DNA of 33,187 bases from IMG/VR virus record IMGVR_UViG_2529293223_000010; one strand, given 5' to 3'. This DNA is from a virus (taxonomy: Duplodnaviria; Heunggongvirae; Uroviricota; Caudoviricetes). Position numbers and translations under genes: made by a program. Numbering within the stretch: the first letter of the stretch is position 1; each line of letters starts with the position of its first letter. This document shows positions 29,353 to 30,218 of this stretch, one piece after another. The notes under the pieces are model-generated. The model had not been told where the DNA came from, did not search any database, and was given only the letters and a program-made list of their open reading frames with translations.

Positions 29353-29811
29353 TCATCGTAAAACATCCTCCACGCTTATCAGTCCATTTCGCTTCAGGTA
29401 ATCCATCGCCTTCTCCGGTAATTTGCAGTCAGGCTTAGCTTTTTTCAGTTGACTGACCAGTCGTTTAACCCACATTGTTAATTCGCTAACCTGATTACTG
29501 GATGCTAGTAGGTTGTCGGCTTTACCCAGAATGACAGCACAGCAAGCCTCTTTGAGTACCCAGTCAACAGCGTCTTTCCATGCTCCTGTTTCGACTGGTG
29601 GATTCTCACGTTTTACCTGTTCATAAAAGCGCACGGCTTTAACCAGTCCTTCTGATGTCACCTGGACTGGCGGGGCAGTGAATAAGGCCTGAATTTCATA
29701 GTTCGGCCTGTCGTTACAATCCTCTTTTTTCGGTACATATTTCCAGTCACCAGACCACCACTTCCCCTGAAAGTCCGTAACGCCTTTTTTTTCACGTAGC
29801 GATATCGCCAT
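29353..29811 (-). CDS. hypothetical protein of unknown function; upstream ORF (29658..29870) joins it in the -1 frame at an A8 run
   Basis: 152-aa ORF starting ATG GCG ATA TCG CTA CGT GAA AAA AAA GGC; no recognised domain. Confidence 0.4.
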   Translation of the reverse strand: MAISLREKKGVTDFQGKWWSGDWKYVPKKEDCNDRPNYEIQALFTAPPVQVTSEGLVKAVRFYEQVKRENPPVETGAWKDAVDWVLKEACCAVILGKADNLLASSNQVSELTMWVKRLVSQLKKAKPDCKLPEKAMDYLKRNGLISVEDVLR

Positions 29812-29866
29812 GCCACTGTTTTTGCTTGCCCCGCCGTTTCATGCCCTTCCTGATAATTAATCTCGC

Positions 29867-30043
29867 TCATTCATCGCCCCACTCATCACAATATGCTTCG
29901 ACCGGAGTTTTTCCTGCTTCATAATCATCACGCCATGCTTCAGCATCAGCAGCACTGCCACCACGTAACTCTGCATAGTCCATTAACAGTTCATGCCATT
30001 CTTCAAAACTGACGTTGTATTTAGTTGAACCAAAATCAGCCAT
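29867..30043 (-). CDS. small acidic hypothetical protein (58 aa), below the ORF-track cutoff
   Basis: Translated by hand: MADFGSTKYNVSFEEWHELLMDYAELRGGSAADAEAWRDDYEAGKTPVEAYCDEWGDE; start overlaps the stop of the upstream small ORF and its own stop overlaps the next ATG (ATGA). Confidence 0.35.
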   Translation of the reverse strand: MADFGSTKYNVSFEEWHELLMDYAELRGGSAADAEAWRDDYEAGKTPVEAYCDEWGDE

Positions 30044-30218
30044 TTTGTTCTTCCTCTTCGTCTTTTATTTCGTGATATGAGTAATTGCAGTAGTTAAAGA
30101 AAATATCTTTTGCTTCGTCATGTATTTCATCAGGCGTCGCATCATCATCCACCTCGAATTCATCCTCGAAATCTCCACCGGCTATTCCCGTTTCAATAAT
30201 AATTTTGAACTTTCGCAT
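30036..30218 (-). CDS. small highly acidic hypothetical protein (60 aa from MRKFKIIIETG)
   Basis: ORF 30036..30254; sequence ends DEIHDEAKDIFFNYCNYSYHEIKDEEEEQNG. Confidence 0.35.
   Translation of the reverse strand: MRKFKIIIETGIAGGDFEDEFEVDDDATPDEIHDEAKDIFFNYCNYSYHEIKDEEEEQNG

Follow-up and report, generated by a model that had tools for sequence, protein, structure and literature searches.

The short genes at positions 29353-30218 are best explained, with moderate confidence, as a decaying nin-region accessory block of a lambdoid prophage in which the first two genes, here named A and B, may encode small inhibitors. The block lies on the minus strand of a viral record of 33,187 nucleotides (IMGVR_UViG_2529293223_000010), the whole of which is referred to below as the window, and the DNA of the window is that of Shigella dysenteriae and includes the remnant of a lambdoid prophage riddled with IS elements. 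The conserved unit of the block is the A-B pair and not the trio, and the third gene, C, is frameshifted. The locus is taken to be the leftover of the prophage’s delayed-early accessory (nin-region) gene block in S. dysenteriae. The features on which the argument depends are as follows.

27655-27867: hok, with sok also present
28080-28760: ORF6N antirepressor gene
28956-29243: convergent gene for a 95-aa protein
29247-29267, no strand assigned: GC-rich hairpin with an 8-bp stem
29273-29356, minus strand: ORF for a hydrophobic peptide of 27 aa, MTWPEAFTTVGIAMAVALVVYSICRWG, ATGA-coupled to the stop of gene C
29353-29870, minus strand: gene C, mosaic and frameshifted, 171 aa when intact, matching phrog_660; basic product, pI ~8.9
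29353-29811, minus strand: 3' ORF of gene C, the 152-aa protein of the preliminary description
29658-29870, minus strand: 5' ORF of gene C, 70 aa, whose ATGA at 29870 overlaps the stop codon of B
29785-29792, minus strand: A8 homopolymer, a +2 frameshift site (A6 in intact alleles)
29867-30043, minus strand: gene B, 58 aa, assigned by profile to phrog_519; no Pfam family
30036-30218, minus strand: gene A, 60 aa, assigned by profile to DUF7167 and phrog_1997
30219-30240, minus strand: truncated initiation region of gene A, with a 4-bp stem left and no AGGAGG
30235-30769, minus strand: ISSfl1 (IS4-like) remnant, 99.6% identical to DNA annotated as an IS4-like ISSfl1 family transposase
30811-31967: IS3-family element
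31983-32453: integrase fragment

A “bacteriophage protein” of S. dysenteriae that is present on 54 contigs has exactly the sequence encoded by the 152-aa ORF (100% identity), and the same allele of gene C was read in four complete S. dysenteriae chromosomes. An IS3-family element occurs in the window in several copies: four times an ORF of 100 aa is paired with one of 272 aa, and Pfam confirmed one such pair. Reading from the chromosomal gene yebY, the order is the integrase fragment, the IS3-family element, the ISSfl1 remnant and gene A. The hok toxin gene, the antirepressor gene and the IS remnants that the preliminary description had placed around the block are all there. Its statement that the genes lie near the integrase end is correct as to the integrase fragment, but this position results only from IS-mediated deletion: the block adjoins the integrase here because IS elements deleted the early region. 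Less damaged copies are found in S. dysenteriae L085/L086, E. coli THO-006 and phage vB_EcoS-640R1. In these, cI/cro-like, YdaT, DnaC-like or P, and DUF977 genes come before the block, and the convergent 95-aa gene, the ORF6N antirepressor, hok, Rem, DUF1367, YbcO, Q-like and lysis genes come after it. Because of this gene order, the block is placed in the nin region, which is its native site; in Stx2a phages the native site is the early-left region, where the A-B pair stands among Ea22-like genes. Some part of a 1.1-kb query from the block matches in 2549 of 5426 complete E. coli genomes (~47%).

The block shares genomic positions with the small ORFs of the lambda nin region and exo-xis/ea region (ninA-ninH, orf60a/61/63/73, Ea22), which likewise form chains of overlapping stop and start codons and exchange material at gene boundaries in a mosaic manner, and the relatives of gene C are fused to DUF551 or Ead/Ea22 modules. 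Unlike these families, A, B and C have no Pfam match to any named one at E<=1, and no lambda record is among the matches listed for a tblastn search with A.

The decay of the window copy is most visible upstream of gene A. In more than 70 loci, and in both genomic contexts, the start region is kept as CAGGAGG-CCGCCC-GAAA-GGGCGG-TAGTTAA-ATG, that is, a Shine-Dalgarno (SD) sequence, a 7-bp GC hairpin with a GNRA loop, 7 nt and then the ATG. The canonical hairpin folds at -15.9 kcal/mol (z -3.3), whereas the window version reaches a z of -0.4. Comparison of upstream sequences across loci puts the end of ISSfl1, in the same orientation, about 17 nt upstream of A’s ATG; the native upstream DNA, including A’s SD, has been replaced by the ISSfl1 end. 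A 14-nt deletion upstream of A was considered and rejected, as it is the ISSfl1 junction itself. IS elements removed the immunity and replication region together with its promoter, and A and B in the window strain are probably poorly expressed relics. Some expression of A and B could still come from read-through out of the IS.

Conservation was examined at 83 loci, comprising 80 IMG/VR contigs and three annotated records. All of them (83/83) carry the 60-aa gene A with an 8-nt overlap to the next gene, B is intact in 80, and in 82 a 4-nt (ATGA) overlap opens the third gene, whose product begins MSE(I/V)(N/D)YQ. The third gene itself is of different types, namely the 171-aa gene, variants of 119 or 104 aa, and Ea22-like genes of 211 or 239 aa. 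The suggestion that the trio forms a conserved unit in prophages is therefore right for A and B, which travel together, and wrong for the third position, which is variable and mosaic. The small ORFs are conserved in related prophages, and their description as co-oriented, translationally coupled genes was borne out: A and B overlap by 8 nt (ATGGCTGA), with B’s ATG within the last codons of A (AATGGCTGA), and B and C by ATGA. The overlap that had also been claimed between the 152-aa ORF and the upstream stop codon does not exist; a gap of 55 nt follows B’s stop instead.

Each of the paired genes also occurs without the other, and an obligate A-B two-component system was rejected on this ground. 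A Klebsiella prophage carries A (70% identity) followed by an unrelated gene, and no A precedes the B homologues of Serratia, Erwinia, Enterobacter, Mixta and Pantoea. A-like proteins are found in virulent phages, namely Klebsiella Guernseyvirinae, Enterococcus Herelleviridae and Phapecoctavirus. B-like proteins are found in about 200 phage records, mostly of Ackermannviridae, where identity is 55-60%; a genome scan with a narrower B alignment gave 7 loci. Since A and B occur separately in virulent phages, their role would depend neither on lysogeny nor on each other.

The 60-aa ORF with the very acidic tail is present as it had been described. Its product has a net charge of -15 and a pI of 4.05, with 33% of residues being Asp or Glu. 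It matches Pfam DUF7167 (PF23768) with 55.1 bits (gathering cut-off 24.4 bits) and an E-value of 7.9e-15 over positions 1-60 of the 60-position model. It also matches PHROG phrog_1997, and RefSeq labels identical proteins “DUF7167 family protein”. By these matches, A is a member of DUF7167/phrog_1997 that does not differ from its family, for which the literature search found no paper. The pairwise dN/dS of A is 0.03, a figure biased by the choice of loci by identity to A. The AlphaFold model (pLDDT 79) predicts a compact beta-beta-alpha-beta arrangement (strands 2-9 and 16-23, helix 29-39, strand 46-51) followed by an acidic C-terminal helix. Among the best PDB matches of this predicted fold, none of them better than weak, are T7 Gp2, Dmd and several Acr proteins; the systems compared with A are beta-beta-alpha-beta phage inhibitors (T7 Gp2, an inhibitor of RNA polymerase; T4 Dmd; AcrIE2, AcrIC9 and AcrIIC3). 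A comparison with BFVD returned uncharacterised phage proteins only, all with E > 0.01.

The 58-aa acidic ORF, previously found by hand translation, is likewise present. B has a net charge of -12, a pI of 4.05 and 28% of Asp or Glu residues. Its match to phrog_519 has an E-value of 4.5e-23 and covers only profile positions 76-137 of 143; judged by this match, B is a member of phrog_519, a family of 261 phage proteins. In Kuttervirus genomes, phrog_519 was predicted by machine learning to be an Acr, on the basis of a PaCRISPR score and not of an experiment (PMC9409062), and this prediction was the only result of a literature search for DUF7167, the RefSeq accessions and the PHROG identifiers. 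The pairwise dN/dS of B is 0.23. A three-helix bundle is predicted by AlphaFold (pLDDT 87), with F13, W16, W37, Y41, G44 and P47 conserved, and its fold finds only generic three-helix matches in the PDB (AAA+ lid, UBA). An exhaustive search for the family gave 65 clusters, nearly all of them stand-alone proteins of 50-65 aa, with the consensus SFEEWxxxLxxxAxxxGxSxxDxxAWRxDYxxGxTPxEAxxDEW. Several apparent links of B to larger proteins were discarded. The large multi-stretch matches are to repeat proteins or helicases that are not related to B; P0266, an apparent DUF1187-B “fusion”, has the look of a read-through call; and the DUF551-B link is a B remnant upstream of a DUF551 gene and not a fusion. 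Inference of B’s function from fusions was dropped, the family being nearly all stand-alone.

No function of A, B or C was obtained from Pfam, NCBIfam, PHROGs, PADLOC, or PDB sequences or profiles, and no protein matches a named housekeeping phage function. Searched by sequence, the PDB held no relative of the three proteins, and sequence and profile searches together gave chance-level matches only. None of the three proteins matched a PADLOC model, nor did the 27-aa ORF or the convergent 95-aa protein, and Rfam found nothing inside the block.

The reading adopted here for A and B is that they may be small stoichiometric binders of host or competitor proteins, which is proposed tentatively, as possible rather than probable. 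According to this proposal, A and B would be two independent small stoichiometric inhibitors, each of which would bind a nucleic-acid-handling protein of the host or of a rival element. Their role would be in host takeover or anti-defence, and they would be made early in lytic growth; they would be neither enzymes, nor virion parts, nor lysogeny regulators. The proposal is made because of their tiny size, strong acidity (~30%) and compact predicted folds with no catalytic signature, because of their early-region location and the purifying selection acting on them (dN/dS 0.03 to 0.23), and because each has spread on its own among temperate and virulent phages that infect different hosts. That DUF7167 and the phrog_519-type three-helix protein represent two new, widespread families of small acidic phage inhibitors is a further step, and it is a doubtful one. 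If it is true, then A would be a candidate for binding a nucleic-acid enzyme or a defence protein of the host in the manner of Gp2, Dmd or an Acr, and the two inhibitor families would serve temperate lambdoids as well as virulent phages, in Gram-negative and Gram-positive hosts.

The main alternative, considered rather unlikely, is that A and B are phage-internal replication or recombination factors, for example modulators or chaperones of the phage’s own nuclease or annealing proteins. In lambdoids, the block comes directly after the replication genes, and a short way downstream of distant B genes in prophages of Erwinia, Enterobacter, Mixta and Pantoea there are ORFs whose products were judged, from sequence alone, to be a P-loop ATPase and proteins of recombinase type. 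In Guernseyvirinae, gene A overlaps the start of the gene for a PD-(D/E)XK (DUF2800) exonuclease, an arrangement that counts against the inhibitor reading in that it fits a recombination role equally. A general association of A with exonucleases was tried and rejected; it is confined to Guernseyvirinae, and the Enterococcus “exonuclease” is a DUF3850/ASCH protein. However, each lineage has other genes beside A or B, the A-B pair is found now in the nin and now in the early-left region whatever replication or recombination module is present, and many lambdoid phages lack A-B altogether.

The second alternative concerns DNA mimicry. The preliminary description had raised the idea that the proteins might be DNA mimics or anti-restriction factors because of their acidity. 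In its explicit form, A and/or B would be Ocr/ArdA-like, or Gam/T7 gp5.9-like, and their acidic surfaces would fill the site at which a restriction enzyme or RecBCD binds DNA. Net charges of -15 and -12 in about 60 residues agree with this, as does the placement of the genes in early accessory regions of temperate and virulent phages. In Guernseyvirinae, the genes for the phage exonuclease and a Gp2.5-like annealing protein follow A directly, and A presumably has the position that corresponds to that of lambda gam and T7 5.9; however, such adjacency to an exonuclease is seen in one of four distant lineages only. The surface carboxylates characteristic of Ocr/ArdA-type mimics are a trait of A and B too, one that is necessary but not specific, and small phage proteins with many different functions are often acidic. 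Such mimics are elongated and usually dimeric, their charges following the spacing of a DNA backbone; the monomer models of A and B are compact small domains and show no elongated DNA-like surfaces, and searches for Ocr, ArdA and other anti-restriction families found none in Pfam at E<=1, NCBIfam, or PDB sequences and profiles. The idea is unsupported, and as an account of A and/or B it is held to be possible but distinctly unlikely.

The counterpart of gene C in E. coli THO-006, where the DNA is 95% identical, is a single gene of 171 aa that starts from the ATGA at B’s stop, and the in-frame E. coli relatives reveal that the “152-aa protein” is the downstream part of a frameshifted 171-aa gene. 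The window has GTGAAAAAAAAGGC (A8), as compared to GTGAAAAAAGGC or GTGAAAAAAGAC (A6) in the in-frame relatives. The A8 allele is not a sequencing error, since it is found on the 54 contigs and in the four complete chromosomes mentioned above. The match to phrog_660 has an E-value of 3e-63 for the 152-aa part and of 1.2e-72 for the intact E. coli homologue, the frame in the window being interrupted; the pairwise dN/dS of gene C is 0.22. Among the 72 loci with the 171-aa gene type, the tract is A6, and thus in frame, in 34, A7 in 8 and A8 in 30, with the A7 alleles entering yet another frame.

One might consider the A8 tract as a site of programmed recoding, at which a -1 frameshift or RNA-polymerase slippage would give rise to a 70-aa product and to a trans-frame product of 172 aa. 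A_AAA_AAG is the -1 frameshift heptamer of dnaX and IS3-family elements. Gene C has the identical heptamer in the upstream frame, at 29784-29790 (with G29784), and needs a shift in the same direction: the downstream frame is exactly -1 and is intact over 143 codons in the window clade, and A8 is frequent (30/72). However, the full-length genes most closely related to it have A6 and simply stay in frame, and the two-frame arrangement is not conserved. In the MSEV clade, an extra stop lies 8 codons downstream, in the conserved frame, at 34/34 of the A7/A8 loci, and the out-of-frame (0-frame) tail varies in length, being 70, 76 or 85 aa. The downstream 143 codons are intact only in the S. dysenteriae-type clade, of which one member is further truncated. 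At the A8 tract there is no stimulatory RNA structure (the 86-nt fold has a z of +0.59, and 145 of 200 shuffled sequences fold as well or better), and a search upstream of it found no SD-like (GGAGG-like) element. Thus, unlike the dnaX and IS3-family sites, the heptamer of gene C arose by expansion from A6 to A8, has no stimulators and no conserved dual products, and occurs in relatives that carry further lesions along with the same tract. Programmed recoding is therefore regarded as very improbable, and the simplest reading is that slippage in a homopolymer has mutated a gene on its way to being lost. It is worth noticing that ribosomal or transcriptional slippage on A_AAA_AAG could leak some full-length C, which would not be a selected property.

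Apart from its frameshift, gene C is a mosaic. A hyperconserved core, EGLVKAVRFYEQVKRENPPVETGAWKDAVDWVLKEAC, is common to proteins of 119 to 264 aa, among them DUF551 and Ead/Ea22 fusions, and DNA 90-93% identical to that of gene C is present in a P2-like phage and in phages of Uetakevirus. A relationship of C to Ea22 was rejected, as only the first 7 residues (MSEI-YQ) are common to both; this likeness marks a recombination boundary.

Two elements downstream of gene C had been missed in the preliminary description. The ORF of 27 aa recurs in 17 of the loci examined, in forms of 27 to 40 aa, and S. dysenteriae records annotate it as a gene; no family match was found in PHROGs or NCBIfam. The hairpin (-15.6 kcal/mol, z -3.3) separates the A-B-C-peptide block from the convergent 95-aa gene, and it is likely a bidirectional terminator.

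The state of the window copy, with neither native promoter nor SD for A and with a broken third gene, could suggest that the small ORFs are chance ORFs or non-functional remnants that give no protein product; this is scarcely credible in view of the significant family matches of A and B, dN/dS well below 1, homologues at 37-60% identity in unrelated phage families and confident structure predictions. On such grounds, A and B are real genes.

Nothing in the block is categorically new, as A, B and C are already catalogued in DUF7167 and three PHROG families. The locus as it stands matters little, being a decaying copy of genes found in near-identical form in many E. coli prophages. It does call for a correction of annotation, in which the S. 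dysenteriae “152-aa bacteriophage protein” becomes a frameshifted fragment of a 171-aa gene. A and B, independent and broadly distributed, are reasonable and cheap candidates for anti-defence and host-takeover screens. If such screens were positive, then a function would be gained for two sizeable orphan families, which would be of moderate interest.

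The start region of gene A follows one pattern, in which AGGAGG runs straight into a GC hairpin (7-bp stem, GAAA loop) and 7 nt separate this hairpin from the ATG (about 5987-6021 in the related locus L001, and in more than 70 other loci). This arrangement is kept in the nin and early-left contexts alike. It is proposed that folding of the hairpin would place the Shine-Dalgarno sequence at a normal spacing from the gene A start codon, the whole acting as a split ribosome-binding site. In the window, a remnant of this region lies at one end of the block, and two small reading frames lie at the other:

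30219-30240, remnant of the canonical gene A start region
29273-29356, 27-aa hydrophobic ORF, MTWPEAFTTVGIAMAVALVVYSICRWG, conserved and translationally coupled to gene C
28956-29243, plus strand, convergent 95-aa gene (phrog_17872)

In some records (e.g., the gene C relative P0183), gene C and the 27-aa ORF are fused, with the ORF at the C-terminal end; family searches with the ORF returned no match. The 95-aa protein has a hydrophobic C-terminus and a weak CCDC90-like match; a hairpin at 29247-29267 is common to its gene and the A-B-C block. The window also contains several RNA genes, among them a cassette of isrK, C4 antisense RNA, and the c4-a1b1 target that is present twice and whose Rfam matches all exceed the gathering score:

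28680-28881, minus strand, isrK/C4/c4-a1b1 cassette, copy 2 (Rfam)
24175-24373, minus strand, isrK/C4/c4-a1b1 cassette, copy 1 (Rfam)
23051-23358, cluster of four tRNA genes within the prophage late region
1365-1547, Shigella sRNA CssrB
32581-32725, sRNA pair SraC/RyeA and SdsR/RyeB, beside yebY

Directly downstream of each cassette lies an ORF6N antirepressor-type ORF (23566-24123 and 28080-28760), an organization that we take to resemble the c4-ant arrangement of P1/P7 immI.

Within gene C, about 110 bp (about 29542-29652) encode KAVRFYEQVKRENPPVETGAWKDAVDWVLKEAC. Temperate phages that are otherwise unrelated, such as the P2-like P88 and the Uetakevirus vB_EcoP_ZX5, carry the DNA of this segment at 90-93% nucleotide identity, and the segment is found within proteins of many different architectures. 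Such conservation is unusually strong for a mosaic gene. The A-run of gene C (29785-29792) is polymorphic in length across E. coli and Shigella prophages; at this site and its counterparts in related loci (L002-L083), A6 was found in 34 loci, A7 in 8, and A8 in 30, which implies at least two slippage events.

Near-identical copies of the E. coli/Shigella prophage DNA were also observed in two unexpected records, a contig labelled “MAG: Collinsella sp.” (JAIHTM010000290.1; 97% protein identity for gene B) and “Actinobacillus phage vB_Apl-pPE4” (PP818812.1; 91% DNA identity). Both occurrences probably reflect mis-binning or contamination. In Shigella flexneri CP182557.1 (L090, 2826-3428), the block is more decayed, with A shortened to 36 aa, B disrupted, and C frameshifted; this pattern of sequence decay fits an ongoing loss of the block genes in Shigella.
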